DNA from: a virus
Taxonomy: Duplodnaviria > Caudoviricetes
Strand: one strand, 5' to 3'
Virus record (IMG/VR): IMGVR_UViG_3300026077_000001
DNA length: 64,000 bases
Shown here: positions 1 through 64,000 of the stretch, piece by piece
How positions within the stretch are numbered: position 1 is the first letter of the stretch
Layout of the letters: every line of letters begins with the position of its first letter
Program-made: the position numbers and the translations under genes
Notes under the pieces: model-generated
Told to the model about the DNA's origin: nothing
Database searches by the model: none
Seen by the model: only the letters and a program-made list of their open reading frames with translations

Positions 1-1
1 A

Positions 2-2065
2 CCCAAGAGTATAGAAGATATTCCTGCAATTTCAATTAACTGGGTAACATTTGATATTGCTAAGATAAGAGCAGCAGCAGACCCAACTAAGTTATATCTC
101 TATGGTTATACCAATGAGAATGCAAAACCACCTAGTAAGATTCAGGGTTATACAGTTGGTGCTAGAAAAGATGGACCAACAACTCCTGATGAGATTAACG
201 TACTGTTGATTGCTTCAGGTGCACAGCAACCAACAACTCATACTGCAAAGATTGATCCATCAGGACCTGACGTTACAGGTTCATTACCTGGTTCAGATGA
301 GTCACCTATCAAGTATGATACTAACCAGTCAAACTGGTATCTACAAGTTGATTCTACTAATAATGACATCTATACAACTCTTATTGCTAACTCACAGTAT
401 CAGAACCTAGGATTTACTCCTACTTCATTCATTAGAAGAATACCTGATGCAAGAGACCTTAAAGATAGAATCTACAGATTTAGATACGTACTGGACAAGG
501 ATGCGTTCCCGATTCCTAGAGAACCCATTACTGGTTTCGTATTACAACCTAGATCTTCAGAGACTAACTCACCTTCATATGATAAGACATACTACATCTA
601 TGAAGTAGAAATATTCCAGACATTTGAACGTGGTGTTGCTGACGGTATCTATTACCTCTCAGTTCTTAATGCTTCAGTATCTCCTGCAACATCAAACTTT
701 GATGACTTTGCATTCTCACAGTATGCTGTAGACATTTATCCTACATTTGACAGAGATAACCCAGTTGCTGACCCAGCACCTGCCGTTTCTGTTGCTGATA
801 ATGATATTCTTGGTAAGGTTACCACAACTGACGGTGCACAACCACAACCTAATGAAGATACTAAACTATCAATTAGTAAGGAGACTGCACAGTTCTTCCT
901 ATTAGAACAAGAGAACAACTTAGGATATAACACTACTTCTAATACATTGAATGCTGTTGTTGTTACTGCACGTTTAGGTGATGAGGAAGAAAGAAAGATT
1001 CCACTCAAACTAAACGCTGACAACTCTGTTGCTCCATTGCTGATTGAGTTACGAAGATACTCTATCCTTAGAGCATCAGGTCACACGTTTGAATACCTTG
1101 GTTTTGGTCCAGGTAACTACAGTACAGCATTCCCATCTACACAGGTGGAAGTTCTATCACCCACACAGGTCAGACTGTCACAGTCATTGAAGGAAGCAGC
1201 AGGTGTTGCTTACTACTCTGGTGTTAACAGTGATGGTGAACTATATGTTGGTAACCAGGTTATTAACCCGATTACTGGTCAGATCACCAATGAAGATATT
1301 GCACAGTTGAATGTTGTTGGTGAAGAAGGAACTACAATTCAGACATTCTCTGAGGTTGTTCTTACTGATAAACTAACCGTAATTGGTGGTGCATCTAACC
1401 AACTTGAGTCTGTATTCTCAGGTCCAGTGACTTTCCAGAAGAGAATCAATGCTCAGGAAAATATTCAGACAATAAAATTGACGTATGCCAACGATGATGG
1501 AACTGTACTAAAGCAGAACTTCCTTGCAGAAGATGATGGCACAGGTCAACCAGATATTGATTCGACATTAGCATTTAATGATGGCGATATTATCTATAAC
1601 ATTGACTGGCAAGCTGGTGATTCATTAGGTTGGATTTACGAGACAGGTATATGGTATAAGTTCGGTCTAACCGATACTACACCTATAACTGCACGTAGAT
1701 TCTCTGGTGTTACAAATTATGGTATTGGTATGGCACCTGACGCATCCAACAGGATGAAGATTGCAGGTAACACTTATATTAATGGTAACCTAGATGTTAC
1801 TGGTAGATACGGTTGTCAAGATAAATACACTCTTGCAACGGGTATTGCTAACAATAACAACGGGGTTGTATATAATGGAAACGGATCCACTACTGGATTC
1901 GCTATTTCTCCTGGACACACATCATATTCAGTGATAGTGTTCAATAATGGTGTTTGTCAGATTCCTGGTGTTGATTATCAGGTATCAGGTAACGCAGTTG
2001 ACTTTAGTATTTCGACCCCACCTGCTACAGGGTCGGTGATCCATATAAGAGAGATGGTTATCTAA
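2..2065 (+). CDS. Large virion structural/tail-fibre-associated protein, C-terminal part (5' truncated)
   Basis: The frame is open from base 2 (PKSIEDIPAISINW...) through the track ORF 206-2065. It ends in a GNGSTTGF...VFNNGVCQIPGVDYQVSGNAVDF module typical of cyanomyovirus virion proteins. Confidence 0.7.
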   Translation, partial: PKSIEDIPAISINWVTFDIAKIRAAADPTKLYLYGYTNENAKPPSKIQGYTVGARKDGPTTPDEINVLLIASGAQQPTTHTAKIDPSGPDVTGSLPGSDESPIKYDTNQSNWYLQVDSTNNDIYTTLIANSQYQNLGFTPTSFIRRIPDARDLKDRIYRFRYVLDKDAFPIPREPITGFVLQPRSSETNSPSYDKTYYIYEVEIFQTFERGVADGIYYLSVLNASVSPATSNFDDFAFSQYAVDIYPTFDRDNPVADPAPAVSVADNDILGKVTTTDGAQPQPNEDTKLSISKETAQFFLLEQENNLGYNTTSNTLNAVVVTARLGDEEERKIPLKLNADNSVAPLLIELRRYSILRASGHTFEYLGFGPGNYSTAFPSTQVEVLSPTQVRLSQSLKEAAGVAYYSGVNSDGELYVGNQVINPITGQITNEDIAQLNVVGEEGTTIQTFSEVVLTDKLTVIGGASNQLESVFSGPVTFQKRINAQENIQTIKLTYANDDGTVLKQNFLAEDDGTGQPDIDSTLAFNDGDIIYNIDWQAGDSLGWIYETGIWYKFGLTDTTPITARRFSGVTNYGIGMAPDASNRMKIAGNTYINGNLDVTGRYGCQDKYTLATGIANNNNGVVYNGNGSTTGFAISPGHTSYSVIVFNNGVCQIPGVDYQVSGNAVDFSISTPPATGSVIHIREMVI

Positions 2066-2068
2066 ATA
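2062..2068 (+). promoter_or_regulatory. Possible T4-type late promoter (CTAAATA)
   Basis: TAAATA core about 30 nt upstream of the ATG at 2097. Confidence 0.45.
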
Positions 2069-2096
2069 GTTAACAAAGAGGGGAGGTTAGTCTAGT

Positions 2097-2951: not shown

Positions 2952-2953
2952 TT

Positions 2954-3928: not shown

Positions 3929-3930
3929 TT

Positions 3931-4485: not shown

Positions 4486-4488
4486 ACA

Positions 4489-4496
4489 TATAAATA
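4489..4496 (+). promoter_or_regulatory. T4-type late promoter TATAAATA
   Basis: Exact T4 late consensus 27 nt upstream of the ATG at 4523. Confidence 0.7.
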
Positions 4497-4522
4497 GATT
4501 TGAGGAAAACTAAACAGGTAAA

Positions 4523-5323: not shown

Positions 5324-5332
5324 GGGTCACCA

Positions 5333-5857: not shown

Positions 5858-5863
5858 AATATT

Positions 5864-7363
5864 ATGAAATTTAATAACATCTGTATTGTCGGAGGTGGCA
5901 GTGCAGGGTGGATGACAGCATCAGTGCTACTTAAACATTTTGAGGGCACTAAAAATATTACGTTGATTGAGTCTCCTCTCGTAGGTTCTATTGGAGTAGG
6001 AGAGTCAACAACACAGCATTTCAATACATTTATTAGGTATCTGGAACTCGAAGATAAAGAGTGGATGCCAGCGTGTGACGCAACATATAAGAACAGCATT
6101 CAATTTGAAAATTGGGGTACTGACCAACCGTGGCAGTACCCTTTTGGTTCGTTTGATACTAATATTCCACCCTTAGACTATTATATTTGGAAGTACTATA
6201 GACAACCATCTAATTCATTATTTCAGAATGTATTCTCTAATGCTGCTGCAGTATCTGCACAAGGAAAATTATATACACCACACATAGAAAAGTTAGTTGG
6301 TTATCATATTGATGCTAGTAAGTTTGCTAAGTATCTAAAGGATAGTTTTTGTATCCCACGTGGTTTAAATTATATTAGTGAAACAGTAGATAGGATTGAC
6401 ACTGAGGGTGACAACATAACTAAACTAACTCTTGATGATGGTAGAGAGATAACTGCTGATCTATTCATAGACTGTACAGGATTCAGAGCAATATTGATGA
6501 ATCGTCTTGGAGTAGAGTGGGAGGATTGGAGTGACGTGTTACTCAATGACAGCACGTGGTGCACAAGAATGGATTACTGTGATAAAGAACGGGAACTTAC
6601 GAGCTATACACGGGTCACTGCACTGTCAAGTGGTTGGGTCTGGTCTGTACCAACTTGGTCTCGTATTGGGACAGGTTATAATTTCAGTTCAAAGTTTCAG
6701 GATAAAGCCTTTGCACTAAAGGAGTTTAAGGCACATTTAGGTTGTCCTGATGCACCAGATGAGAACTTTAGATACTTACGTTGGCCAACAGGTATGAGAG
6801 AACAGATATGGGTAGGTAATACAATAGCAATAGGACTATCTGCTGGTTTTATTGAACCATTAGAATCAGGTGGTTTGTTCTCAGTACACGAGTTCTTATT
6901 TAATTTCATACAGTTTGCTGATCCTAAGAGAGATTGTATATCAGGACTACAACGTGACTGGTTCAATGCAGCGTGTCACGTCAAGTTTATGACATTCAGA
7001 GATTTTGTCGTACATCATTTCACAGCAGCATACAAAGACGACACACCATACTGGGATGCTGCAACTTCAGTACCATTTCACACATTAAATAATATTGACT
7101 GTCGTGATGTACCAACAACATTAAATGATTTGTTTATTGGTATGCAGTTTGTGATGGCAGGTCTAGGTTATACTATTATTGGTAGGAAGGAAGTTATGGA
7201 TATGGAAGCACATTATGATCGAGAGTTTGGTGGTGACTTCTTACCCATCTTAGATGCTGCTATAGAGAAGAGGATTACAGAAGGTAAGGAGATCGCATCA
7301 TTTATGCCAAGACCCATTGACTATTACAATGATGTCCTATATAATACTGACGGTATCAAATAG
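5864..7363 (+). CDS. prnA: Flavin-dependent (tryptophan-halogenase family) halogenase 1
   Basis: GGGSAG FAD motif, IGVGEST, ATYK (catalytic Lys76), WVWSVP (WxWxIP variant), FIEPLESGG. Confidence 0.9.
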   Translation: MKFNNICIVGGGSAGWMTASVLLKHFEGTKNITLIESPLVGSIGVGESTTQHFNTFIRYLELEDKEWMPACDATYKNSIQFENWGTDQPWQYPFGSFDTNIPPLDYYIWKYYRQPSNSLFQNVFSNAAAVSAQGKLYTPHIEKLVGYHIDASKFAKYLKDSFCIPRGLNYISETVDRIDTEGDNITKLTLDDGREITADLFIDCTGFRAILMNRLGVEWEDWSDVLLNDSTWCTRMDYCDKERELTSYTRVTALSSGWVWSVPTWSRIGTGYNFSSKFQDKAFALKEFKAHLGCPDAPDENFRYLRWPTGMREQIWVGNTIAIGLSAGFIEPLESGGLFSVHEFLFNFIQFADPKRDCISGLQRDWFNAACHVKFMTFRDFVVHHFTAAYKDDTPYWDAATSVPFHTLNNIDCRDVPTTLNDLFIGMQFVMAGLGYTIIGRKEVMDMEAHYDREFGGDFLPILDAAIEKRITEGKEIASFMPRPIDYYNDVLYNTDGIK

Positions 7364-7366
7364 ATT

Positions 7367-9833: not shown

Positions 9834-10135
9834 CTATTGATGAACTGATACAAAACTTCCACTTACAAAAGGAAGAACAATCTAAATTGATTGAACAACT
9901 AGATGAGGAATTTAGTAACAAGAAACTAAACCCTTATGGTGTGACCACTGTTGATTTCAGCAAGAGGTCAGAAGCATACAGTCAGAGATCAAGACTTGAA
10001 GGTGCTATTGACGCACTGTTTATGGTCAAACGTGATATACTAGGAGAGGAAGAAGATGTTAATATGCCATCATTCGAACTCGCTACCGAGGAGGATGATA
10101 ATATAGAAACCATAGGACAACGCACGGAGGACTAA
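9830..10135 (+). CDS. Hypothetical protein
   Basis: 101-aa ORF with overlapping stop/start on both sides. Confidence 0.65.
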   Translation: MTIDELIQNFHLQKEEQSKLIEQLDEEFSNKKLNPYGVTTVDFSKRSEAYSQRSRLEGAIDALFMVKRDILGEEEDVNMPSFELATEEDDNIETIGQRTED

Positions 10136-10296
10136 TGTCAACATACCACATATATCTTAAAGATCGTTGTCTATTCAAAGACCTTGATGATGACGAATTT
10201 AAAGTTATATGGGGTAGGTTATATCATTCCTATTGGGATGACTTGACATTTTCCGAGGTCAATGAACCCGCTAACGATTTAGAACCTAGTTACTAA
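10135..10296 (+). CDS. Small hypothetical protein (53 aa, MSTYHIYLKDRCLFK...)
   Basis: Read manually. TAATG coupling to the upstream stop; fills the gap exactly. Confidence 0.6.
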   Translation: MSTYHIYLKDRCLFKDLDDDEFKVIWGRLYHSYWDDLTFSEVNEPANDLEPSY

Positions 10297-10298
10297 CT

Positions 10299-10562
10299 AT
10301 GTCAGTTTACAGAGATTATGAGATACGTATCAACCTCAATGAATTAATTGAGAAGCGTGTCCCTTGTTGTGATCTATTACATCCTGATCATTGCTTCTCA
10401 GCAGATCAAATATCACAGATAGCACACGACATTAATATGGATTTAGACCTGCATCCTGTTTATCATCAGATTGATGAACATATTATGAGATATGTAACAG
10501 CAGCAGGAATAGACAACTCAGATCACTGGGTTGAAAAGAAATTACCTGACCTTAAGGATTAA
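10299..10562 (+). CDS. Hypothetical protein
   Basis: 87-aa ORF in a tight operon. Confidence 0.65.
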   Translation: MSVYRDYEIRINLNELIEKRVPCCDLLHPDHCFSADQISQIAHDINMDLDLHPVYHQIDEHIMRYVTAAGIDNSDHWVEKKLPDLKD

Positions 10563-10564
10563 TT

Positions 10565-11143
10565 ATGTCACTCAAAGAAGCAACGTGGGAACACCACAAA
10601 AGAGCAGAAGAACAACCATTTGTAGGTATGATGTTTGGAGGTAAGTTACATCCAAAATCATATGCTATATTCTTATACAATCAGATCCAACAGTATGATG
10701 TATTAGAGGACACAGCATCAAAGAATGATGTACTAACAGGACTAGAAGATATCAATAGATATCCTGGTTTAGTTAAAGACTTCCAAGAATTATGGGGAGA
10801 GTATGGTGGAGAAGCAGAGATACCACCAACTTTAGAAACAACCAACGAGTTTACTAAGTACATTCTGGAGATTGATAAAGATCCTAGTTCAGAGAGTAGA
10901 CAAAAAAGATTGATGGCACACATCTACACACGTCATATGGGTGATCTTATGGGTGGACAGATGCTTGCTAAGAAAGTACCAGGATCTTCAGCAATGTATG
11001 AGTTTGCTGACCCAGAAAAACTGAAAGGTGCTATTCGTGCTAAACTAGATGATTCAATGGCAGATGAAGTAAGAGTTGCTTACAAGTTTGCTACCAGTAC
11101 ATTCAAGGAGATGCTACCTTACGCTAATGTCAAAGAAGAGTAA
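10565..11143 (+). CDS. ho1: Heme oxygenase
   Basis: LKEATWEHHKRAE (proximal His) and HIYTRHMGDLMGGQMLAKKV signature. Confidence 0.92.
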   Translation: MSLKEATWEHHKRAEEQPFVGMMFGGKLHPKSYAIFLYNQIQQYDVLEDTASKNDVLTGLEDINRYPGLVKDFQELWGEYGGEAEIPPTLETTNEFTKYILEIDKDPSSESRQKRLMAHIYTRHMGDLMGGQMLAKKVPGSSAMYEFADPEKLKGAIRAKLDDSMADEVRVAYKFATSTFKEMLPYANVKEE

Positions 11144-11297
11144 CGACACAAATTTCTGGTCTTCATTTATTAACTATGAAACTCATCCACCCACTCTTAA
11201 ACGTCTATCCAAAAAGGTTAGAGAAGAGACTGCCAAACGAGTCAAGCAGTTAAAGGAGAGAATGGATGAGTTTAATAATAACACCAGACGACCCTAA
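11127..11297 (+). CDS. Small hypothetical protein (56 aa)
   Basis: MSKKSNDTNFWSSF... from an internal Met of the track ORF 11076-11297. Confidence 0.45.
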   Translation: MSKKSNDTNFWSSFINYETHPPTLKRLSKKVREETAKRVKQLKERMDEFNNNTRRP

Positions 11298-11880
11298 ACC
11301 AGTTGAGTACATTCCAAATTATGTTTGGAGACTCAACTATGATTTTGAGTATGAACAAGGTGGTTCATTACAATATGATATTGGGTCATTATTAGATACA
11401 GTTAAAAAGAATTCAGAACTAGAGAGCAACAACGCATTTAGTACAGCGTCAGCATCACTAGAACCTTATGCACCCCATAATTGGGAGTGCTTAGAGAAGT
11501 TTTTATATATTATTCACAAACAGTTGGTTCCAATTTGGAAGCACTGGGGTTATTTCGATTGTCGCATTGCACCACGTGAGTCTTGGATCAATATCCACAA
11601 GCGTGGTGGAATAACCACAGAGCATTTACACAGTCCCTGTCCTATGGTAGTCTCTTGTTATCTCAAGGCACCACGAGGATCAGGGAACTTTTTAATTAGA
11701 GATCCATTAGAGTATCATCGCTTTGGTTCTCCACAGGTACCAGAACAAAATTTATGGAGAGAGATACCAGTTCAAACAAATGACATACTGGTATTTCCTG
11801 GTTGGTTGAAGCACGCAACACAACCAAATAATACTGATGAAGATCGCATTAATCTATCAATCAATTATGAAGGTCATTAA
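11266..11880 (+). CDS. 2OG-Fe(II) oxygenase (TIGR02466-like)
   Basis: WINIHKRGG..EHLH, FPGWLKH, RINLSINY. Confidence 0.85.
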   Translation: MSLIITPDDPKPVEYIPNYVWRLNYDFEYEQGGSLQYDIGSLLDTVKKNSELESNNAFSTASASLEPYAPHNWECLEKFLYIIHKQLVPIWKHWGYFDCRIAPRESWINIHKRGGITTEHLHSPCPMVVSCYLKAPRGSGNFLIRDPLEYHRFGSPQVPEQNLWREIPVQTNDILVFPGWLKHATQPNNTDEDRINLSINYEGH

Positions 11881-12385
11881 CAAACTGCTTCCAGAATTAT
11901 ATGCAGACAGAATTCACGAGATGATGTCAGGAATAAAATTCAACTGGCATTTTTTAGATGATATAACATATGCTAATGAAGGTCCACATCAACGAGGTAC
12001 ACCAGGATTTGCACACCTATTCTTTGATGAACAAGAGGGAATAGAATCAGAGTGTTTGGATTTTGTATATCCTATGCTCTTACACTTTATACCTAAGAAA
12101 CATAAACTACTGAGGATTAAGGGAGGGTTGCTTTTAAGTACCAAAACAGGATATAATAGACCACATATTGATTTTGATATACCACACACTACAGCACTAT
12201 ATTATGTCAATGATTCTGATGGTGAAACTATCTTCTTTGATGAAAATGGTACAATCACAGACAAGATTAAACCAGAGAAAAATAAACTCATTATTTTTGA
12301 TGGTTCTAAGATGCACGCATCGAGTTCACCTACCTACGCTACAAATAGAATTGTGATTAATTTTAACTATGTCTGTACTGATTAA
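11867..12385 (+). CDS. 2OG-Fe(II) oxygenase
   Basis: PHID...YYVNDSDGET...FDGSKMHASS...RIVINFN. Likely start is MKVINK. Confidence 0.85.
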   Translation: MKVINKLLPELYADRIHEMMSGIKFNWHFLDDITYANEGPHQRGTPGFAHLFFDEQEGIESECLDFVYPMLLHFIPKKHKLLRIKGGLLLSTKTGYNRPHIDFDIPHTTALYYVNDSDGETIFFDENGTITDKIKPEKNKLIIFDGSKMHASSSPTYATNRIVINFNYVCTD

Positions 12386-13058
12386 CTACTACCAATACGA
12401 AGGTGCTGAAAATGTCACAGACATACTAGATTCACCTCTATCAATAGATGGTGTTGGCATTGAACCAGAGAGAACTCTGGATAAAATGCCTAAGACAACA
12501 CCATACTTAGATTGTCCTGCATTTACTCATAAAGCATCACGTGAGTGGATAGTATATGCACCTAAAGATATCACACTAGAGATTGATAATGATAATTCAC
12601 AAATAATATGTAAGCAGTTAAATGCTCAAGATTTAAACAGAACAGTACAGGTACAAAATAAGAGAGCACCAATAACAACATTACAATGTTGTATGCCTAT
12701 GTTAATATGTTGGACTTGTTGTAAAAATATATGGGTAGAGGTTAAAGATTATCCACTCACTTCACTTAATAATAATTTCACAGTAGTTCAAGGATGGTTC
12801 AATCTATCATCTTGGACACGTCCAATATCATTTGGGTTGAATATTGTTGACAATACTAAACCTGTTATCATTAAGCGTGGTGATCCATTATATAAAATAA
12901 ACTTCATTCAAGAGGGTAATCTCAATCAAGATTTTAGATTTGAAAAGGCAATGCCACCTGAAGATCTATTAATCCAAATGAATAAGAGAGTGAGGGTGAA
13001 GGGATTCATCAACAACTTAGCAAAGACTCTTATGTTTAAACAATGTCCATTCAAATAA
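12369..13058 (+). CDS. Hypothetical protein, paralogue A (DUF6065-like)
   Basis: DGVGIEPER, CPAF, GWFNLSSWTRPI, IIKRGDPLY, C-terminal CPFK. Confidence 0.6.
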   Translation: MSVLINYYQYEGAENVTDILDSPLSIDGVGIEPERTLDKMPKTTPYLDCPAFTHKASREWIVYAPKDITLEIDNDNSQIICKQLNAQDLNRTVQVQNKRAPITTLQCCMPMLICWTCCKNIWVEVKDYPLTSLNNNFTVVQGWFNLSSWTRPISFGLNIVDNTKPVIIKRGDPLYKINFIQEGNLNQDFRFEKAMPPEDLLIQMNKRVRVKGFINNLAKTLMFKQCPFK

Positions 13059-13741
13059 ACTATCTACAATATGAGTCACCAGACTGGTCACTTGATAGAG
13101 CACTAGACTCTTCATTGACACTAGATGGTGTTGGGTTTGAACCTGAGAGATATTATGATACGTTTGATCCTAGTAAAACAATATATCATTCTTGTCCTGC
13201 TTGGCAGCATAAGGTGAAACGGGAATTTGTGATACGGGCACCTAAGCATATTGAATTAAGAATGAATAGAGAAGAGCAGTTCATCACATCTAATATTGAA
13301 GGTGATCTGTTTCATCAAATAATACAACCACCACCAAATTGGGAGGTGGATCAGACATTTCAAATACATATACCTATCTTCTTAATGTGGACAAGATCAA
13401 AGAATGTATGGGTAGAACAGAAACAATGTAATGGTAATAACTTTAAGGTAGTAGAAGGATGGTGGAATCTATCTGATTGGTCACGTCCTATTGGATTTGC
13501 TATTAACTTTATAGATGAGTCTAAACCTATTATAATTAGAAGAGGAGATCCAATATATCGTGTAGCATTCTCTCAAGAGCATAACCATAATCAAACATAT
13601 AATATGGTTAAATCTACACCAACAAGTAAACAATTACGTGATGCACAAAAGAGAGTAGATACTAAGAATCTATTCCCTAGAATCACACACAATCTTATTT
13701 TTAACACGACTAAATGTCCTTTTAGATTATGGCAGAAATAG
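13043..13741 (+). CDS. Hypothetical protein, paralogue B (DUF6065-like)
   Basis: DGVGFEPER, CPAW, GWWNLSDWSRPI, IIRRGDPIY, C-terminal CPFR. Clear tandem paralogue of 12369-13058. Confidence 0.6.
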   Translation: MSIQINYLQYESPDWSLDRALDSSLTLDGVGFEPERYYDTFDPSKTIYHSCPAWQHKVKREFVIRAPKHIELRMNREEQFITSNIEGDLFHQIIQPPPNWEVDQTFQIHIPIFLMWTRSKNVWVEQKQCNGNNFKVVEGWWNLSDWSRPIGFAINFIDESKPIIIRRGDPIYRVAFSQEHNHNQTYNMVKSTPTSKQLRDAQKRVDTKNLFPRITHNLIFNTTKCPFRLWQK

Positions 13742-14391
13742 TACCAACAACTATTATTGATAGATTTTTTGAGACACCAAGTTTAGTGCGAAAGTATGCA
13801 CAATCACTTGAATATTATCCTTGTACTGAACATCCAAACAGAGGGTATTGGCCAGGTAAGAGAACTAAACTCATACAAGATTTAGATCCTGTTTTTCACG
13901 AGATTATATGTAGAAAGATAATTAAATACTTACCAAGTTATCGTGCATTTGAGATAGCAGACGCAGCATTTCATATTAGTACAGGTGAGTGTGGTAGTGG
14001 ATGGATACACACAGATGATGACCATTTAGGAATTGGTGGTGTTATCTATCTTAATCCAGATATGACTGAGGATAGTGGAACAACAATATATGATGTACCT
14101 GCTGGTGCTGAAATGCAAGGATATGAAGAGGAGTTTCATAAGGCAATGGAAGCACAAGGTACTGAAGCGATTACTAACTTTGATAAGTATAAGGAGGAGT
14201 GTAATTCATATTTTAATGAGTCTATCAAGGTGCAAGCACGTTACAATCGTGCTATAATATTTGATGGACGTAAGTATCACGGAGGACAGAACTTCTATGG
14301 TTCTACATCTGATGATGCAAGACTAACCTTAGTATTCTTTGGCAGGGGAATTAATGACTACCAATCATATGACGCAAGATTTGAATGTTGA
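13729..14391 (+). CDS. 2OG-Fe(II) oxygenase (DUF6445-like)
   Basis: GWIHTDD...GVIYLNP...SGT...YNRAIIFDGRKYHG...RLTLVFF. Confidence 0.8.
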   Translation: MAEIVPTTIIDRFFETPSLVRKYAQSLEYYPCTEHPNRGYWPGKRTKLIQDLDPVFHEIICRKIIKYLPSYRAFEIADAAFHISTGECGSGWIHTDDDHLGIGGVIYLNPDMTEDSGTTIYDVPAGAEMQGYEEEFHKAMEAQGTEAITNFDKYKEECNSYFNESIKVQARYNRAIIFDGRKYHGGQNFYGSTSDDARLTLVFFGRGINDYQSYDARFEC

Positions 14392-15016
14392 TACTATACG
14401 TGATGGCAAATTATATGTCATTCGTAATGGTTTATCAATCGAGACTTGTGAACAATTAAAAATAGAATATATGATGATTAAGGATGTTGTCGAAACACAG
14501 TATTCGGGACCAACTTCTGATCCTATAATGCCAGGTGCATTTGCAATGTATTCACCAGTATGTTTTGAAGCAATGGGACAACACATACAACCACAGATTG
14601 AACAGGTGTTAGATACACAATTACATCAAACATTTAGTTATGCCAGAGTATATGTTAAAGGAACAAATTTAGTAAGACATAGAGATAGAACAAGTGGTGA
14701 ATGGGTTGCTAATGTGTGTATAACAAGAGACGATACTGATTGGCCCTTGTACTTAGAAATGGAGGGTAAATCACATCAAGTTCTTATGAATCAAGGAGAT
14801 ATATGTATCTTCCGAGGACATAAAGATTTCCACTGGAGACCTAAGTACACAGGTGAGTTACAGATACAAGCATTCGTATCTTATGTTGATGCAAATGGAA
14901 AATATGCTAAGAACAAATATGATGGACGACCAATGTTATCAATGCCTTGGGAGTCAGCAGCAGACTTCATTAAAGAAGAACAAGCAATGATTAACTCATC
15001 ACCCTACTACACATAA
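14354..15016 (+). CDS. 2OG-Fe(II) oxygenase (start uncertain)
   Basis: YARVY..G..L.RHRDR...GDICIFRG...HWR. Confidence 0.8.
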   Translation: MTTNHMTQDLNVDTIRDGKLYVIRNGLSIETCEQLKIEYMMIKDVVETQYSGPTSDPIMPGAFAMYSPVCFEAMGQHIQPQIEQVLDTQLHQTFSYARVYVKGTNLVRHRDRTSGEWVANVCITRDDTDWPLYLEMEGKSHQVLMNQGDICIFRGHKDFHWRPKYTGELQIQAFVSYVDANGKYAKNKYDGRPMLSMPWESAADFIKEEQAMINSSPYYT

Positions 15017-15017
15017 T

Positions 15018-15683
15018 ATGAAGTTCACAGTACAGTCACCATTTAAGACACAATTTAATAATATGCAAGACGTTATTGTCTTTGATGATATAATCCCACC
15101 AGTATATCAGAATTGGTTAATAGATTGTATTAAGAACCCTGATCTCAAATGGATGATTAAGGACAATGCAATTAGTGATTTATTTGAAGATGACCCTCGC
15201 AATGGATATTGTAATTTCCATTATTTGTATGAAGTAGAACAGGGTGAGTTATCACCATTATGCAACGCATTTATGCCTCTAGCATTACAGTTCAGAGATA
15301 AGTTAAAGGCAGAATCATTGCTTAGGATGAGAGTTAACCACGTACCTGCTTGGTGCTCTAACATCATTCAGTTACCACACGTTGACAGTTATGTCAAAAA
15401 CTCTTGGAATGTGGTATATTATATTGATAATTCAAATGGTGACACTATTATCTACAACGAGAGGACACAAGATCCCCAACAATATGTTGAGTTAGCAAAA
15501 CAGGATAAATTCACAGAAATGACACGAGTATCACCTAAGAAGGGTAGAGCAGTGGCATTCAAGGGTGATTTATTTCACTCATCAACAACACCAGTAGGTA
15601 CTTGGCGACCTGTTGTTAACATCAATTTAGCAGAGCAACCACCTACTGCTAATGACATCATTTACAATCCAAACAAAAAATGA
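15018..15683 (+). CDS. 2OG-Fe(II) oxygenase
   Basis: PHVD...YYIDNSNGDT...KGRAVAFKGDLFHSS...RPVVNIN. Confidence 0.85.
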   Translation: MKFTVQSPFKTQFNNMQDVIVFDDIIPPVYQNWLIDCIKNPDLKWMIKDNAISDLFEDDPRNGYCNFHYLYEVEQGELSPLCNAFMPLALQFRDKLKAESLLRMRVNHVPAWCSNIIQLPHVDSYVKNSWNVVYYIDNSNGDTIIYNERTQDPQQYVELAKQDKFTEMTRVSPKKGRAVAFKGDLFHSSTTPVGTWRPVVNINLAEQPPTANDIIYNPNKK

Positions 15684-16348
15684 CCTATAAAATTAAAGAT
15701 GGTGAGGACTGGGTATTGTACAGATCACCAGTTGTAGAGCACGAGCAAGAAGAAATGCTACGTCAACTAGGACGTGGTTATAGACTCTTCAAAGAGACAT
15801 TTACTGGTCTTGATAGTTCTTTAAGGCAAGAGGGTTTAACACTCGGTGCACTGCCATCTCTGTTCAATGTAGATCACGTTAAGAAGGATAGAGAGCACTT
15901 AGATAATATGGACACTAACTATTCTGGTTATCGGTTCTATAATCTATTTTCATTGACTGCACCATCACCATTATTCTGGTTATTGCTACAAGATATAAGG
16001 ACAGTAGTTAGAACAACGTTAGGAACTGATGAACCATTATGGATGCAATGTTGGGTTAATATGCACAAACCAAATGAAGTATTAAATTGGCACGATCATA
16101 AGTTTGATTATCACGGATATGTAAGTATTGACCCAAAGAACAGCATAACAAAATTTAGAGATAGTAGAGGTCCATTATATGAAATAAATAATGAAGTTGG
16201 TAACATTTATTTCGGACCTGGATGGGAACGAATGCACAAAGTATGTGTTAATGAAGAGTACGAAGGTAATAGAATTACCCTAGGATTTGATATAGAAACA
16301 CGAGGTGACTTACCAGACGACCAGTTCTCTCTTATCCCTTTACTGTGA
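15680..16348 (+). CDS. 2OG-Fe(II) oxygenase-like protein
   Basis: WVNMHKPNEVLNWHDH...MHKV...RITLGFD. Confidence 0.75.
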   Translation: MTYKIKDGEDWVLYRSPVVEHEQEEMLRQLGRGYRLFKETFTGLDSSLRQEGLTLGALPSLFNVDHVKKDREHLDNMDTNYSGYRFYNLFSLTAPSPLFWLLLQDIRTVVRTTLGTDEPLWMQCWVNMHKPNEVLNWHDHKFDYHGYVSIDPKNSITKFRDSRGPLYEINNEVGNIYFGPGWERMHKVCVNEEYEGNRITLGFDIETRGDLPDDQFSLIPLL

Positions 16349-16545
16349 TGTTAGGAATCAAGACACAAATATTAAATAGCGAGAGCAAAGACATCTTGCG
16401 TAAATCTCTTGGTATGTTCATATCTAAAACATATCAATCACATAGTGAAGGGAGAATAGATGAAGGACAACTGCACGAGTTGTTACATACTGTAGAAGAA
16501 ATTACTGATCTGTTATATCTAAAGTATGTTGAGAATTTAGAATAA
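16345..16545 (+). CDS. Hypothetical protein
   Basis: 66-aa coupled ORF. Confidence 0.5.
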   Translation: MMLGIKTQILNSESKDILRKSLGMFISKTYQSHSEGRIDEGQLHELLHTVEEITDLLYLKYVENLE

Positions 16546-16546
16546 T

Positions 16547-17976: not shown

Positions 17977-19209
17977 TTGAGTATCACACTAAGACCACAC
18001 CAGAAAAGAGCACTCGAAGCAATGGGTGACAATGATAAAGGACAGATCATTGTGCCTACTGGTGGTGGTAAGACAATGATAATGATACAGCACGCTATCA
18101 AGCATTTTGAAGAGAGTCCAGTACCACAGACTATAGTTGTAGTTGCACCTCGTATTCTATTGGCACAACAACTATGTACTGAGTTCACATCATTGATTGA
18201 TGCTGATGTGTTACACGTCCATAGTGGTAAGAATGAGTATAAGAATACTACTGACCCTAAAGTTATTCAAGAGTGGGTAGATAACAATACAAATAATATA
18301 CTAATCTTTACAACATACCATTCACTTCATAAGGTATGTGTATTGGATGATGTTGACATAGTATATTATGATGAAGCACATAATAGCACAACTAAATCAT
18401 TTTTTCCTGCTGTTCAGGAGTTTAGTCAGAGAGAACAAACTAAGGACTATTATTTCACAGCAACACCTAAGTATGGAACTAGATCTAATTTCATAGGTAT
18501 GAACATACCTAGCATTTATGGTGAAATAATAGAGAATGTTACTGCTAGTGAGTTGATTGACAATGGTTCAATCATACCACCTACAATAGTACCATTTAAT
18601 GTTAATGGCACAAGGACTAGACAGAATGCTCACGAGTTTGATGTAGATGCAACACTAGACCTACTTGATGAGATAGATGATAATGAATTGACCCCTAAAG
18701 TGGTTGTCAGTATTGGATCTTCTAAGGTTCTTCAGTCAATGTTAGGTAGAACACCACTATTACAAGAGTTAAAAGATCGTGGATATGATGTATTACACGT
18801 CACTAGCAAGTTTGGTGCATACGTTAACGATAAGAAAGTATCAAGGTCTCAGTTTATGACCACACTAAATGAGTGGGGAACTGATGATGATAAGAAGTTT
18901 ATCGTATTTCATTACTCTATACTATCTGAAGGTATATCAGTTAGTGGATTGACTCACAGTATTATGTTGAGACAGTTGAATCTCATAGAAATGGCACAGA
19001 CAATAGGTAGAGTTATAAGGATGGATGCACGAGACAAGGCAGATATTAGTTCAAATAAACTGAAATCTGGTCAAGTGCAGTTCTATCGCAAGTCAACTGG
19101 TTATGTGTGTGTACCTATGAGCAGTAAAGCAACAGTAGCAAGATTACAAAGAGTAGTGGACGACATATTTGTTAAAGGTATCCCACCACTTCCTCTATCG
19201 TATAAATAA
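17977..19209 (+). CDS. SF2 DEAD/DEAH-type helicase (type III restriction Res-like)
   Basis: LRPHQ, PTGGGKT, APRILLAQQL, TTYHS, DEAH, TATP, LSEGI, QTIGRVIR. TTG start. Confidence 0.88.
   Translation: MSITLRPHQKRALEAMGDNDKGQIIVPTGGGKTMIMIQHAIKHFEESPVPQTIVVVAPRILLAQQLCTEFTSLIDADVLHVHSGKNEYKNTTDPKVIQEWVDNNTNNILIFTTYHSLHKVCVLDDVDIVYYDEAHNSTTKSFFPAVQEFSQREQTKDYYFTATPKYGTRSNFIGMNIPSIYGEIIENVTASELIDNGSIIPPTIVPFNVNGTRTRQNAHEFDVDATLDLLDEIDDNELTPKVVVSIGSSKVLQSMLGRTPLLQELKDRGYDVLHVTSKFGAYVNDKKVSRSQFMTTLNEWGTDDDKKFIVFHYSILSEGISVSGLTHSIMLRQLNLIEMAQTIGRVIRMDARDKADISSNKLKSGQVQFYRKSTGYVCVPMSSKATVARLQRVVDDIFVKGIPPLPLSYK
19201..19208 (+). promoter_or_regulatory. T4-type late promoter TATAAATA
   Basis: Exact consensus about 30 nt upstream of the ATG at 19240. 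Confidence 0.6.
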
Positions 19210-20206: not shown

Positions 20207-21121
20207 ATGAAAGATACCATATTATATGGAGATTGTCGAGAGACTCTCAAACAATTTGATGAAAAGGCGAGGATGTGTGTAACATCACCGCCTTATTATG
20301 GTTTAAGAAACTATGGTAACGAGGACAATCAAATTGGATTAGAACAAACACCTGAAGAATACATTAAACAATTAGTTGAAGTATTCAGGTCAGTTCGTGA
20401 TGTACTTACGGATGATGGAACACTATGGGTAAACATAGGTGACACATACTATAATTACAGATCAGATGGTAATTATCCTAAGCAAACAGTATCTAAAACT
20501 AATCAAGATTTACCAACATTTACACCAGTTAGAGGTAACAAGTTTGATAACTTAAAATCTAAGGATTTAATTGGTATACCTTGGATGTTGGCATTTGCTT
20601 TGAGGGATGATGGATGGTTCTTACGTCAAGATATAATATGGCATAAACCAAATCCAATGCCTGAAAGTGTTAGAGATAGATGCACTAAATCTCACGAATA
20701 TATCTTCTTATTATCAAAGAATAAGAGATATTATTATGATAATGAAGCAATCAAAGAACCTGCTAAGGACTGGGGAACCAGAGATAGAACCAATGGCAAG
20801 TATCACAATAAAGGAACTGGACTGCAACCACATTCAGGATTGACCAAATCATATCCTATGAAGAATAAAAGAAGTGTGTGGTCAGTCACGTCCAAACCTT
20901 ATAAAGGTGCTCACTTCGCTACTTTCCCACCTGATTTGATAGAACCTTGTATCAAGGCAGGATCTTCACAAAATGACATAATTCTTGATCCATTTATGGG
21001 ATCAGGCACAACTGCAATGGTAGCAAGGGAACTGGGTAGGCATTACATAGGATGTGAGTTACATAACGACTATTCTAACCTAGTTCAGAAGCGATTAGGG
21101 TTGTTCCAGTTCACAAACTGA
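20207..21121 (+). CDS. Beta-class DNA methyltransferase (N4-cytosine type, M.SmaI/M.Cfr9I-like family)
   Basis: VTSPPYYGLR (motif IV) precedes ILDPFMGSGTT (motif I). Also LWVNIGDTY, IIWHKPNPMPES, HEYIFLLSK, HFATFP. Confidence 0.9.
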   Translation: MKDTILYGDCRETLKQFDEKARMCVTSPPYYGLRNYGNEDNQIGLEQTPEEYIKQLVEVFRSVRDVLTDDGTLWVNIGDTYYNYRSDGNYPKQTVSKTNQDLPTFTPVRGNKFDNLKSKDLIGIPWMLAFALRDDGWFLRQDIIWHKPNPMPESVRDRCTKSHEYIFLLSKNKRYYYDNEAIKEPAKDWGTRDRTNGKYHNKGTGLQPHSGLTKSYPMKNKRSVWSVTSKPYKGAHFATFPPDLIEPCIKAGSSQNDIILDPFMGSGTTAMVARELGRHYIGCELHNDYSNLVQKRLGLFQFTN

Positions 21122-22969: not shown

Positions 22970-23178
22970 TGAGAGAAGATTTAATGCCAGATGGATTTAA
23001 TGGTGAAATTAACTACAATGATGACGGAACCATTAATCTCAATGGTAACCTACTTCCAGAGGATTTAAGAGTAGTATCAGAGATAATATTTGATACTATA
23101 GCAAATTGTGGTCTATTTGATGACCACGATAAATTTTCATTTCAAATAAACATTAAGGAGGAAATTGACAATGATTGA
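22969..23178 (+). CDS. Hypothetical protein
   Basis: 69-aa ORF with GGAGG RBS. Confidence 0.6.
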   Translation: MREDLMPDGFNGEINYNDDGTINLNGNLLPEDLRVVSEIIFDTIANCGLFDDHDKFSFQINIKEEIDND

Positions 23179-23275
23179 ATTATTTGTTATTGTTGGAGGT
23201 GCATACGCTCTTTATGTGTGTGGTGTTGCTATTGCAACAAATTTAGATTATTACGAGGTTAACAAACGTGATTAG
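23171..23275 (+). CDS. Small membrane peptide (34 aa)
   Basis: MIELFVIVGGAYALYVCGVAIA hydrophobic segment; AGGAGG RBS. Confidence 0.5.
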   Translation: MIELFVIVGGAYALYVCGVAIATNLDYYEVNKRD

Positions 23276-23564: not shown

Positions 23565-23804
23565 ATGAATTTATTTGATGCAGTTCCAACAGTTGTAAGA
23601 GACAATTTTCAAGGATACGACAAGGGTGAATCAATTTCAGTTAAAGAGATCACCAACGCAGTATTTCAGGTAATTGATCTATGTGACAACTTTGACAAGG
23701 ACACCATCAAAATGACAACATTTAGACAAATCCGTCTAATGGTCTCAAATGGTGTTGATATGTTACTCAATGACCCGATTCAATTTAACGAGGTAATGTT
23801 CTAA
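23565..23804 (+). CDS. Hypothetical protein
   Basis: 79-aa ORF with AGGA RBS. Confidence 0.6.
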   Translation: MNLFDAVPTVVRDNFQGYDKGESISVKEITNAVFQVIDLCDNFDKDTIKMTTFRQIRLMVSNGVDMLLNDPIQFNEVMF

Positions 23805-24322
23805 TGAATGTTGTTATTGACAAGATGCAATCACCCGAAGCAAAGTATCAACAACTGTTCGAAGCAATGTATCAACTTTGTGACGAAAATAACTGGGGAG
23901 ATCCTTTCAGTTATGCACGAAGCAGAGAGATACATTTAGCGAGCATACTTGGGCACCGAGTTAGTGATACTTTATCAGGTGCAGATGCCTATGATGAGAA
24001 TAACTTACCAGTTGAATATAAGTCAACTATTGGTAAGAAACTAACAGCAACTTATAACGGCATAAGTGTACAAAACTCGTGGGAGGAGCAAGTTAACTAT
24101 CTTAGAGAAGATAAGATAGGTAAGTATCACAAACACTTCTTTGCTAGGTATCATTTAGGCAAGGTAGTTGAGATTTGGGTTATGAATGCGGATGACGTAT
24201 TACGCATACTAATTGATAACCTAGAGAGACAATTTAAGACAGTTGGTAATAAGAAAGACCCCAGACTTGGGTACACTATTAGTAACAAACTCATCCAAAC
24301 TTACGGAACTAAAGTATTATGA
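23804..24322 (+). CDS. PD-(D/E)XK nuclease, PvuII restriction-endonuclease-like
   Basis: SGADAYDENNLPVEYKS catalytic motif. It aligns by eye along its whole length with R.PvuII as I recall it (EGNDAVD..QEYELKS; KY..W/FFA.Y...EI; C-terminal GTKI/VL). Confidence 0.65.
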   Translation: MNVVIDKMQSPEAKYQQLFEAMYQLCDENNWGDPFSYARSREIHLASILGHRVSDTLSGADAYDENNLPVEYKSTIGKKLTATYNGISVQNSWEEQVNYLREDKIGKYHKHFFARYHLGKVVEIWVMNADDVLRILIDNLERQFKTVGNKKDPRLGYTISNKLIQTYGTKVL

Positions 24323-24528
24323 GCATTGAACAATTAAACCCAGAGAGAGAACAATCCATTGATCTTATTGCTGAAACTTATTACAATCGTATGAAATTAC
24401 ACGTTGATAATAATAACCCACGCAATGCAGAAGCACTATGTTTAGAATACTTAGTGGACGGAATTGACCCCGAAGATGGTAACTATTCCTGGATGTTCTT
24501 ACAACATTTAGATAGTTTGTTTGAGTGA
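24319..24528 (+). CDS. Hypothetical protein
   Basis: 69-aa coupled ORF. Confidence 0.6.
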   Translation: MSIEQLNPEREQSIDLIAETYYNRMKLHVDNNNPRNAEALCLEYLVDGIDPEDGNYSWMFLQHLDSLFE

Positions 24529-24714: not shown

Positions 24715-24772
24715 ATGACAATTAAATAAGTGGCACAGAACCCCTGTTATCAGGGGTTTTTTCCTTTATAAT
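24715..24772 (+). promoter_or_regulatory. Dyad motif plus -10 box copy 7
   Basis: ATGACAATTAAATAAGTGGCAC; TATAAT at 24767. Confidence 0.7.
24739..24762 (+). terminator. Intrinsic terminator
   Basis: AACCCCTG-TTAT-CAGGGGTT followed by TTTT. Confidence 0.75.
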
Positions 24773-25999: not shown

Positions 26000-26329
26000 A
26001 TGAATCCCTTTAAAAAAATTGATAACGATACCTATCAAGATGATGCTGGTATTTTATACAAACCTATCCCTAATTACGAGGACTATTTTGTATCTAACGA
26101 AGGACAGATATATTCAACTAAGTGGGGTAAATGGAAGAAATTAAAGATACATTTAAACGAAAATGGATATAGACGTGTTACTTTAAGACAAAATGGTAAG
26201 ACAGTTGTAAGAAGATGTGCACGATTATGTGCTCTTGCTTATCATCCAGGCGGAACAGATTACCAGAACGTTATTCACATTGACAAAAACAAATTGAATG
26301 ACCAAAGTAATAATCTAAAATGGGTATAG
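26000..26329 (+). CDS. NUMOD4/HNH-type protein, C-terminally short
   Basis: KPIPNYEDYFVSNEGQIYS (NUMOD4), GYRRVTL, VIHIDKNKLNDQSNNLKWV then stop. Confidence 0.75.
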   Translation: MNPFKKIDNDTYQDDAGILYKPIPNYEDYFVSNEGQIYSTKWGKWKKLKIHLNENGYRRVTLRQNGKTVVRRCARLCALAYHPGGTDYQNVIHIDKNKLNDQSNNLKWV

Positions 26330-28777: not shown

Positions 28778-29335
28778 ATGCAAATGGATTGTTGTGTCAT
28801 TTGTGGCACCACTGAGAACCTACATCATCACCATATTATACAAAGGAATTCGAAACTAGCTGATGATATGATCGGCAAAGAGTATGAAGGTTCTACTATA
28901 GACAGGGATTGGATTAATAACCACCCACATAACCAGATTACAGTATGCGTCCCACATCATAAGTGGGTACACGGTTTGAGATATTCATTAAGAGACAAAG
29001 CTTGGTCTGAGAGTGTTAAAAGAGGTCAAGCAAAGGCAAGAGCAGAAGGTAGATTACCTGGTGCACCTAGACTTGCTGATGAGAAACGTGATATGATCTA
29101 TAAGATGTACGATGAAGGTAAGAAATGGATAGAGATTAGAGAAGAGGTAGGAGTAGGTTTTAACAGTATATCCAAATGCTTACGAGCTAGAGGAACGAAG
29201 CTTAATCGTATTAAGCGTGACTTCAATGATACGTATTGGGACGGTAAAGCAGACCTATGGTTTAAGGAAGAACAAGAAAGACTGAAGAAACCACGTATCA
29301 AGCGTGATTTCTCAGATTTAGCACTATTAAGTTAA
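28778..29335 (+). CDS. HNH endonuclease with C-terminal resolvase-type HTH (putative homing endonuclease)
   Basis: CVICG..ENLHHHHII...NQITVCVPHHKWVH, then KRGQAKARAEGRLPGAPR..IYKMYDEGK.W.EI...VGVGFNSI. Confidence 0.75.
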   Translation: MQMDCCVICGTTENLHHHHIIQRNSKLADDMIGKEYEGSTIDRDWINNHPHNQITVCVPHHKWVHGLRYSLRDKAWSESVKRGQAKARAEGRLPGAPRLADEKRDMIYKMYDEGKKWIEIREEVGVGFNSISKCLRARGTKLNRIKRDFNDTYWDGKADLWFKEEQERLKKPRIKRDFSDLALLS

Positions 29336-34067: not shown

Positions 34068-34475
34068 ATGGCGTATAGGTTTAAAGCAGAAAGGAACTTG
34101 TCGAGGCAGTTCCGTGACCTCAGTATAGGGATGAAAAACAACCCCAATACTGAGGATTTTTCTGTGGTTAAAAATGAGAACGCTATTAAGCAATCCATCA
34201 AAAACCTGATCCTGACTGGGTTTGGAGAGAGACCTTTCCAACCAACTAAAGGATCACGGTTACGTCAGATGCTCTTTGAAAATTTCGATGTCTTTATGGC
34301 TGAGGAATTAAAAGAAGAAATATTTAACGTATGTTCACGATTTGAACCACGTGTTGTTATTAATGAAGTTAGATTAGAGGTAGCTGATACCAATGATCTC
34401 GAAGTTGAGGTTGATTACACTATTATCGGTGAAACTCTTACCCAAACTGTAGACTTCTTGTTGGAGAAAACATAA
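34068..34475 (+). CDS. gp25: Baseplate wedge subunit gp25
   Basis: AIKQSIKNLILTGFGERPFQP..GS.L...LFE...FEPRV. Confidence 0.93.
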   Translation: MAYRFKAERNLSRQFRDLSIGMKNNPNTEDFSVVKNENAIKQSIKNLILTGFGERPFQPTKGSRLRQMLFENFDVFMAEELKEEIFNVCSRFEPRVVINEVRLEVADTNDLEVEVDYTIIGETLTQTVDFLLEKT

Positions 34476-62377: not shown

Positions 62378-64000
62378 TGGCAGCAAACGGTAGTTACAAT
62401 CCAAGCAATGATGTACTCACAGTAACGGGAGATGGTTTACCCAATCCCGTTGCTAAGGGTACGTTCCCTAATGCAAACAATTCTAATGATGTTGAGTCTT
62501 ATACTTTTAGTCACGCTTTTACATATAGAGGTGGTACTAACACTCAAGCAGGTGGTAGTTTACCACTAGGTGTTGTTGGAATAAGTGCTAATGGAGTTGT
62601 TTTAAATAATCCATCTGCAGGTACTCTTGGTAGTCCTCCAACTGGATTTAATTGGGTGGCTACTGATGCTTTTGGTATGTACAATCCTGGTGATGATGCT
62701 GCTGGTGGTCGTCCTAATGCTAATGATCAATATCATTATATTGACGGTGAGTTTATAGGTGCTTGGAAAACCAATCAGGTGATGGGTTCTTATAATGATT
62801 ACTATGGATTAAGTCAGTATGTTGGTGACAATATGCGTCACCCTGACGGACACTCTAAGATCTTGGGTCTTGCATTTGATGGTTATCCTGTTTATGGTCC
62901 TTATGGATATAATTTACCACAGGACAATACTTCTCCAGTAGTTTTAATGGAGACGGGATATCAGATGAAAGAATCTATTGCTGTTAATAGACCTGCATAT
63001 GGTACTACAACAGCAAATCCTCCTAAAGGTGCATTAATGGAGGATTATGAATATAATGTAGATAAGGTTGGAAGGCATCTAGATGTTTATAATGGTCGCT
63101 ATTGTTATACTCCTGAGTATCCCAATGGTACTTTTGCTTACTTCATAACACTATGGAATGATGAAACTGAAAGTAAAGAATATACTGTAACAGTTACAAG
63201 TGAGAATGATGGTAATAAGTATCGTCTTGATGGAGTCTTGTATCCAAATTTAACATTTATTCAAGGAAGTACTTATAGGTTTATACAATCAGATCCATCT
63301 AATTTATCACATCCTATTAAATTCTCAACAACAGAGAATGGTATACACGGTGGTGGAGTTGAATATACAAGTGGTGTAACATCTGTTGGTACTGCAGGTG
63401 AGTCTGGTGCATATACAGAGATCACTGTACCTTCTGATGCACCTAATTTATATTATTATTGCCTCAATCATTCGGGAATGTCTAGTGGTGGAGGTGCTAT
63501 TACGGTAGTACCTAATCGTTATATGACACCAAAGTTCCCTTATATATTTGGTCTTTCTTCTAAAGAAACTCTAAATATACCAGCAAATCAAGGTATTGGT
63601 CAGGAATCATCAGGTGGTGGAGAAAGTGGAGGTGGAGAGACCCAAACTACTCCTAGTATTATTATTACTAATCAGCCTACCAATGCAACGATTGCTGATG
63701 GTGGTACTCAAAACTTTAGTTTGATTGCTGTTATAGAACCTGAAGATGGTACTAAAGGATATCAATGGCAAGTATCTACTGATGGTGGATTTGCTTGGGC
63801 AAATATAACTGGTGCTAATAGTACATCCTATTCACTTGTAGCAGCAGCCTTTATGACTGGCTATAGGTATAGATGTATTGTTACTGGACCTCTAGGTGAA
63901 TCACAGCAAGCGTCTAACTCTCCTCTTGCATCTAACCTTGTTATACTCACAGTCACTGGTGGTACTAGTGGCGAAGACACTTCATCGGTTTTGAAGTGGG
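62377..64000 (+). CDS. YHYH-domain virion protein with cupredoxin-like and Ig-like domains (3' truncated)
   Basis: TAATG-coupled, and the frame is open to the window end. It has GISANGV, YHY, HSKILGLAFDGYPVYGPYG, DVYNGR, HPIKFS...LYYYCLNHSGM and QPTN...YQWQ. Confidence 0.8.
   Translation, partial: MAANGSYNPSNDVLTVTGDGLPNPVAKGTFPNANNSNDVESYTFSHAFTYRGGTNTQAGGSLPLGVVGISANGVVLNNPSAGTLGSPPTGFNWVATDAFGMYNPGDDAAGGRPNANDQYHYIDGEFIGAWKTNQVMGSYNDYYGLSQYVGDNMRHPDGHSKILGLAFDGYPVYGPYGYNLPQDNTSPVVLMETGYQMKESIAVNRPAYGTTTANPPKGALMEDYEYNVDKVGRHLDVYNGRYCYTPEYPNGTFAYFITLWNDETESKEYTVTVTSENDGNKYRLDGVLYPNLTFIQGSTYRFIQSDPSNLSHPIKFSTTENGIHGGGVEYTSGVTSVGTAGESGAYTEITVPSDAPNLYYYCLNHSGMSSGGGAITVVPNRYMTPKFPYIFGLSSKETLNIPANQGIGQESSGGGESGGGETQTTPSIIITNQPTNATIADGGTQNFSLIAVIEPEDGTKGYQWQVSTDGGFAWANITGANSTSYSLVAAAFMTGYRYRCIVTGPLGESQQASNSPLASNLVILTVTGGTSGEDTSSVLKW

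Follow-up and report, generated by a model that had tools for sequence, protein, structure and literature searches.

Absence of CATG from a clade of T4-like cyanophages: extent, maintenance and candidate nucleases

Why does a cyanophage contain no copy of the tetranucleotide CATG, and would the enzyme that enforces this absence belong to the host or to the phage itself? The question was raised by a 64,000-nucleotide stretch of virus DNA (IMG/VR record IMGVR_UViG_3300026077_000001; guanine plus cytosine (GC) content 0.379), which was analyzed at full length and is called the window throughout. All its long open reading frames (ORFs) lie on the + strand. The window is part of a T4-like cyanomyovirus (Kyanoviridae). 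Using three window segments in megablast searches, relatives were found at 71-76% identity only, the nearest records being Cyanophage P-RSM6 and P-TIM40, two phages of Prochlorococcus NATL2A that match the window patchily at 72-76% nucleotide identity; this strain was the isolation host of both. We found the CATG purge to be real, absolute, clade-wide and actively maintained. Three genes of the window bear on its cause: the nuclease gene R, the DNA methylase gene M1 and the short gene H.

First, all words were counted in the window. The main feature is the following.

1-64000, both strands: CATG-free stretch, with CCGG, CGCG and GCGC also at zero and AGCT at 0.28 of expectation (exact counts, codon analysis)

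The exact count over the whole window gave 0 CATG. Base composition predicts 220 copies, a first-order Markov model 346 and a maximum-order model 233, the last value being given by the trinucleotides CAT and ATG, which are common. The original prediction, that CATG is purged and should be abundant at this base composition, was confirmed. It had named this word only and had missed the zeros for CCGG (0/19; observed/expected, here and below for words), CGCG (0/11) and GCGC (0/17) as well as the strong depletion of AGCT (52/186) and GGCT (24/74). Counts for GATC, ACGT, GTAC and CTAG were near expectation, and CATT was found at 1.57 of expectation.

Analyzing the 27 long ORFs of the window by codon phase, CATG was found avoided in all three phases, and it is also missing from the non-coding DNA on both strands. 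Ahead of a codon starting with G, histidine was encoded 92 times by CAC and never by CAT, while other contexts showed 160 CAT and 69 CAC; the choice of CAC ahead of glycine had been correctly noted in the original prediction. Serine, proline, threonine and alanine codons ending in A were absent ahead of TGG, TGT or TGC (0 of 113 cases), although A is the third base in 42% of such codons overall. A special use of rare NCG codons ahead of tryptophan and cysteine had also been claimed. NCG was indeed enriched about 4-fold over its 3.4% background (15 cases), but the main replacement was NCT (90 cases), with NCC contributing 8. A C-ending codon preceded none of 247 internal methionine codons, and no ATG start codon had a C in front of it. 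Avoidance is thus exerted by synonymous codon and dicodon choice.

In order to describe the extent of the purge, related loci were fetched from IMG/VR via the gp6 gene.

34475-36559, + strand: gp6, probe for fetching relatives

A total of 80 loci was obtained (70-100% amino acid identity in gp6, GC content 0.345-0.44, many samples). CATG was absent from 80 of 80, with 9-72 copies expected in each, and CCGG was also absent from all. The complete clade genome G003 (181,945 bp, terminal repeats) contained 0/620 CATG, 0/111 CCGG and 16/394 AGCT. The second clade genome counted as complete, the 187-kb contig G002, contained 12/666 CATG, all 12 in its last 2.5 kb. This CATG-bearing end (185063-187347) may have been acquired recently by recombination with a CATG-normal phage, or sequence of such a phage may have been wrongly joined to the contig during assembly. 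Outside the clade, ten cultured relatives (P-RSM6, P-TIM40, syn9, P-SSM4, P-SSM3, S-SM1, S-PM2, S-RIM2, S-SZBM1 and metaG-MbCM1) contained CATG at 0.77-0.91 of expectation. As CCGG was missing in all ten of these too, its purge is common to every Kyanoviridae genome sampled. Pooled over the window, the loci L001-L155 and the whole genomes of G002, G003, P-RSM6, P-TIM40, P-SSM2 and P-TIM68, CCGG was counted 0 times versus about 1,170 expected, in Synechococcus as well as Prochlorococcus phages. AGGCCT and GTCGAC were likewise found at about zero in every Kyanoviridae sequence examined. Beyond these shared words, the purge lists differ by lineage. GTAC was found at 0/110 in S-SM1 and 136/668 in P-TIM40, while the G002/G003 subclade showed GATATC at 0/127 and CAGCTG at 0/86, with GTATAC, TACGTA and AGTACT nearly gone. 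P-RSM6 has no GCATGC among its 726 CATG sites, and in S-RIM2 AATT was found at 51/181.

The purge might be a relic of past selection. In a neutral simulation, the substitutions that separate the window from each of nine relatives (6-24% divergence) were kept in number and type but placed at random, with 200 runs per comparison. Simulated substitutions created on average 16-38 CATG per comparison, and the lowest single run still gave 7; the real sequences contained 0. This supports strong and continuing selection against CATG, as had been proposed in the original prediction.

Cleavage at CATG is very probably the selective force. A new CATG would expose unmodified phage DNA to a CATG-specific cut, and continuing purifying selection would keep the word out. 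The original prediction named a CATG-targeting nuclease, either a host NlaIII-like system or an enzyme of the phage. Its first part, nuclease-driven avoidance, is well supported. As to the agent, the NlaIII/IceA family was found in 1 of 401 sampled host-family genomes and in 0 of 5 clade genomes and contigs, and homologues of R coexist with hundreds of CATG sites. We favor a phage-borne agent, although with no better than even confidence. The trait is invariant over a deep clade whose GC content of 0.345-0.44 is taken to reflect different hosts, it ends abruptly where sister lineages infecting the same host genus begin, and a matching system is almost never found in host genomes. Such a cutter would travel with the phage lineage as a nuclease without a protecting methylase; lacking sites, the phage genome would be spared, while DNA of the host or of rival phages could be cut. 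R would be the first candidate, the remainder being H or an unrecognised clade-specific gene.

R is located in a small operon (23565-24528), with a promoter match upstream.

23165-23193, + strand: sigma-70-like promoter match, TTGACA-17-TATTGT with TG ahead of the second hexamer (consensus match; promoter-like sites here not enriched over shuffles)
23804-24322, + strand: R, nuclease of 172 amino acids, predicted PvuII fold, PD-(D/E)xK type (AlphaFold, Foldseek, alignment of 16 homologues)
24737-24760, + strand: intrinsic-terminator-like hairpin closing the R operon, 10-bp stem followed by a T run (13 terminator-like sites versus 5.6 expected)

The AlphaFold model of R, obtained from 16 homologues, reached a predicted local distance difference test (pLDDT) score of 90.1. 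Its top 12 Foldseek matches in the PDB were all R.PvuII (E-value 1.9e-7, template modelling (TM) score 0.66-0.74, probability 1.00, about 20% identity over the whole chain). Residues D61, E71 and K73, forming a PD...ExK motif, were invariant in the 16 homologues; they presumably correspond to D58, E68 and K70 of PvuII, with a D...ExK spacing that we take to be the same. Support from sequence profiles was weak. The R protein of the window had no Pfam match at E-values up to 1 and did not reach the PF09225 gathering score, 3 of 16 homologues matched PF09225 at an E-value of 0.0056 or weaker, all below the gathering score, and a profile of the R family gave no PvuII match among PDB sequences. Judged by its predicted structure, R is a genuine PvuII-fold enzyme. 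Its family comprises about 1,570 proteins in metagenomes, environmental and unannotated. R is present in G002 and G003 and was found in 16 of 35 clade contigs; the 19 contigs without it are fragments. Ten of these were traced to gp6 loci; they break off 2-9 kb upstream of gp6 and so do not extend to where R would be expected. Every clade contig reaching that position carries the gene (16 of 16). No match to R was found in whole P-RSM6, P-TIM40 or the eight further CATG-normal cultured phages. The promoter match and the strong terminator-like hairpin around R hint at early transcription.

CATG was recounted in related phages with and without this nuclease, as the original prediction had suggested. 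The ratio of observed to expected CATG splits completely by R, with 0 in the clade, 0.30-0.62 in thirteen others with R and 0.77-0.91 in the ten Kyanoviridae without R. Among the thirteen, ratios of 0.50 for P-SSM2, 0.58 for P-TIM68, 0.40 for G037, 0.33 for G038, 0.38 for G039, 0.50 for G040 and 0.62 for G041 were obtained, and the R-bearing contigs L291, L295 and L296 gave 0.41, 0.34 and 0.54, respectively. G038 is an unrelated phage in which CCGG is normal, and no tetranucleotide is as strongly depleted there as CATG. In G038, G041 and L176, R directly adjoins mutually orthologous PF01555 methylases with a DPPY motif. This motif is typical of adenine methylases. If the neighboring methylase is of the adenine type, the site of R should contain an A.

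Several observations weigh against R as the CATG-specific agent. Its homologues coexist with CATG in P-SSM2 (414 sites), P-TIM68 (505 sites) and G037 (95 sites), and these three share neither an orthologue of the DPPY methylase nor any common extra methylase. The tree of R nests a CATG-containing group A inside a CATG-free grade. CCGG-containing words, AGGCCT and GTCGAC are also at zero in every Kyanoviridae genome with R. As several words are at zero in all unprotected R-bearing genomes, any of them would fit as the site of R, and sequence data cannot deduce it. Furthermore, CCGG in all Kyanoviridae sampled and GATATC in one subclade (0/127) were fully purged without a detectable phage nuclease, and all clade-specific genes correlate with the CATG-free trait by shared ancestry alone. 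R as a CATG cutter is plausible, though the case is weaker than it first looks, and we propose R itself as the agent only tentatively.

Possible reasons for the coexistence of R and CATG were tried. Orthologues of the DPPY (type-C) methylase as protectors were not found in P-SSM2 and P-TIM68, and PSSM2_068 as a shared protector failed, having no orthologue in P-TIM68. The remaining CATG of R-bearing genomes did not point to a longer site, as all NCATGN contexts occur among them. A mosaic origin of the partial depletion was rejected with CATG evenly spread in P-SSM2, G038 and G039; only G037 and P-TIM68 have CATG-free blocks around R. In these two (about 4.5-16.9 kb in G037, about 46-58 kb in P-TIM68), R lies within a 6-12-kb block, which also surrounds M1 if that gene is there, with hardly any CATG or AGCT. 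The sequence pattern suggests that these blocks may have been transferred from a CATG-free donor. A different arrangement was observed in L296 (a JGI 3300041083 contig, unrelated phage), where a nuclease gene of the MvaI/BcnI family and a homologue of R were noted (6227-6976 and 10001-12623). There the R homologue is followed by an unknown gene of 344 amino acids and a PF01555 methylase, and the 20.5-kb locus showed CGCG at 0/21 and GGCC at 3/49.

The PvuII fold of R raises the question of its relation to the methylase M1, which lies with R in a variable early-gene island.

17977-19209, + strand: DEAD/ResIII helicase, anchor of the variable early-gene island with M1 and R (domain search, neighbourhood comparison)
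20207-21121, + strand: M1, N6/N4 DNA methyltransferase (PF01555, Pfam E-value 8.4e-59) with motif IV SPPY, 2.7 kb upstream of R

The SPPY motif of M1 is a form that we take to be typical of N4-cytosine enzymes such as M.PvuII. The homology of R to PvuII, together with an SPPY-type methylase nearby, suggests by analogy that the two might form a PvuII-like CAGCTG system instead of a CATG-specific one, a further point against R as the cause of the purge. Counts of CAGCTG go in the same direction, with 12 versus 11 expected in the window, 24/32 in clade members with M1 and 0/86 in R-bearing members without M1, a contrast that is confounded with subclade, as the same subclade purged several other hexamers too. 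Orthologues of M1 (75-84% identical) occur in phages with and without R, beside the helicase in R-less phages; in P-TIM68 M1 adjoins R. G002 and G003 have R and no PF01555 methylase, with one D12-class methylase each. M1 does not relieve selection on CATG, as the purge persists under selection in M1-bearing lineages. M1 as a protector of AGCT or CAGCTG was rejected; it showed a trend only, which cannot be separated from subclade membership and in which new contigs overlap. Compared to the R.PvuII/M.PvuII system (Type IIP, CAG^CTG; PF09225; PDB 1pvi, 3pvi), the phage shares the predicted full-length PvuII fold with its D...ExK motif and an SPPY-type PF01555 methylase nearby. It differs in the low identity of about 20%, in a methylase that is not adjacent in the lineage of the window and is gone from complete relatives, and in CAGCTG occurring about as often as expected in the window.

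Against a phage-borne agent, restriction by the host has to be taken seriously as a rival, even if its probability is well short of even. Here the hosts, or a recurrent fraction of them, would carry CATG-specific restriction-modification, rare encounters being sufficient given the very large populations of cyanophages, and R would be an unrelated PvuII-type enzyme, possibly CAGCTG-specific and paired with M1. The coexistence of R with CATG in several phages agrees with this, as do the many purged palindromes whose list varies by lineage (GTAC in S-SM1, GATATC in G002/G003, CCGG everywhere), the usual signature of exposure to many systems. No phage nuclease was found for the other purged words; the HpaII, MspI, EcoRV and NlaIII Pfam families gave nothing above cut-off in cyanophage genomes. 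One host-family genome (G406, contig C84, 25366-26733) has an NlaIII/IceA-type gene adjoining a C5 DNA methylase, possibly a CATG-type restriction-modification pair in a picocyanobacterium. However, it is the only one among the 401 host-family genomes with this known CATG nuclease family. C5 DNA methylases were found in 45 of the 401, the HpaII family and the R family in none. In the phages, NlaIII/IceA (PF05315) was absent at E-values up to 0.1 from the five clade genomes and contigs searched, three of which are at least 94% complete. Also against host restriction, the purge is absolute and uniform over a deep clade with the GC range read as different hosts, while sister phages from the same strain, Prochlorococcus NATL2A, keep CATG. 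Finally, host DNA shows no CATG depletion. In 543 kb from 31 Prochlorococcus genomes, found with a psbA query (a heme-oxygenase query gave no matches), CATG was counted at 1484/1667 (0.89), AGCT at 2817/2687 and CCGG at 218/276, and marine Synechococcus was similar. With CATG undepleted in Prochlorococcus, host DNA offers the word about every 370 bp.

Within the favored reading of a phage-borne agent, the cutter could be a gene other than R, either H or another clade-specific gene of unknown fold. We regard this as unlikely, and H as the second, weaker candidate.

26000-26329, + strand: H, 109 amino acids, NUMOD4 and the first half of an HNH_3 motif (Pfam)

H was found in 24 of 35 clade contigs. 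Among them are all contigs long enough to cover its position, also those that break off immediately upstream of R. Close homologues were found in 42 IMG/VR loci, and CATG was at zero in 42 of 42. No H was found in P-RSM6, P-TIM40, P-SSM2, P-TIM68 or G037. H accompanies the CATG-free state in all contigs that could be assessed and was seen in no CATG-containing genome examined, R-bearing ones included, which makes it a better predictor of zero CATG than R. NlaIII, SphI and NspI, the known enzymes with a CATG core, are of the HNH type, which also speaks for H. Against it, the protein stops right after NLKW, ahead of the second half of the HNH motif, with no continuation downstream in any frame. 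More distant relatives, in 735 phage records from many hosts, are ordinary genes resembling homing endonucleases, although such short proteins are common among them. The correlation with CATG comes from one clade with no independent contrast. Among the other clade-specific ORFs, no recognisable nuclease family was detected; they are oxygenase-like paralogues or proteins without a known family (Pfam; PHROGs and ESM Atlas gave no function). An HNH_2-like ORF (28778-29335) was rejected as agent, given its weak match (E-value 0.007) and its absence from the CATG-free G002 and G003.

A cause other than cleavage, be it a replication, packaging or transcription signal or a mutational bias, gains from the fact that no agent was identified but is very improbable, as CATG is palindromic and missing from both strands, all codon phases and the non-coding DNA, as the other purged words are short palindromes typical of Type II sites, as CAT and ATG are common, and as a mutational bias would not give an exact 0 alongside CATT at 1.57.

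Loss of restriction sites from phages is familiar; Staphylococcus phage K, for example, is GATC-free. Restriction-site avoidance in phage genomes has been surveyed, in a text that does not mention CATG, cyanophage, Prochlorococcus or Synechococcus (Rusinov et al., 2018; PMC6286503). As in such avoidance, a short palindromic Type II-like word was removed genome-wide by synonymous codons here, and several words were removed at once. In contrast, the loss is absolute across a deep and abundant clade and not one phage, the sampled hosts have almost no matching restriction genes, and CATG is retained by sister lineages that share the host genus. A virus-encoded nuclease for CATG is known from chloroviruses, where R.CviAII degrades host DNA and CATG methylation by M.CviAII protects the virus DNA. 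A cyanophage enzyme could similarly be a site-specific nuclease cutting host CATG early in infection; it would differ in that chloroviruses methylate their own CATG, while the cyanophage clade has none to protect. With an intact Type II nuclease gene and no recognisable cognate methylase, G002 and G003 resemble the solitary restriction endonucleases surveyed in bacterial and archaeal chromosomes; such genes are suggested there to be perhaps unexpressed or changed in function (Ershova et al., 2012; PMC3488263). R differs in that a whole clade of lytic phages has conserved it, and several words that might be its target are missing from the genome of this clade.

A tentative extension of these considerations is restriction without modification in an abundant clade. 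Orphan nucleases, among them a PvuII-fold enzyme cutting CATG, would shred host or rival DNA, the purged words would serve as self-protection, and the lists of other lineages (GTAC, GATATC, CCGG) might point to further such nucleases. If the agent is phage-borne, this would be a natural system that tells self from non-self by the absence of a sequence and not by methylation, and a new CATG-type or PvuII-type enzyme family with its about 1,570 metagenome members. Among viruses infecting the main primary producers of the ocean, T4-like cyanophages rank with the most abundant. In the literature searched, no report of CATG-free cyanophages was found. The maintained, clade-wide absence of CATG, together with that of CCGG from all sampled Kyanoviridae genomes, forms a genomic signal that is both strong and simple. 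This signal offers a marker for sorting metagenomic contigs and sets a constraint for engineering these phages; it also poses the directly testable question of whether the cutter is the host's or the phage's own.

The gene order of the window is P-TIM40-like, with tail fibres, tryptophan halogenases, 2-oxoglutarate (2OG)-Fe(II) oxygenases, the DEAD helicase, the DNA methylase, many small ORFs, gp25, gp6 and a giant structural gene. The helicase-anchored neighborhood was also found in P-TIM40, P-SSM2 and metagenomic contigs. The giant ORF follows gp6 at 36587-62377 and comprises 8,596 codons; in P-TIM40 (65082-87137) and P-RSM6, the homologous genes carry the annotation virion structural protein. 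Six tandem ORFs of 220-232 amino acids were found at 12369-16348, three of them matching DUF6445 or 2OG-Fe(II) oxygenase. Five of the six were matched in the CATG-free G002 and G003 and none of these five in P-RSM6, P-TIM40, P-SSM2, P-TIM68 or G037, while the sixth (15018-15683) showed weak matches in P-RSM6 and P-TIM40.

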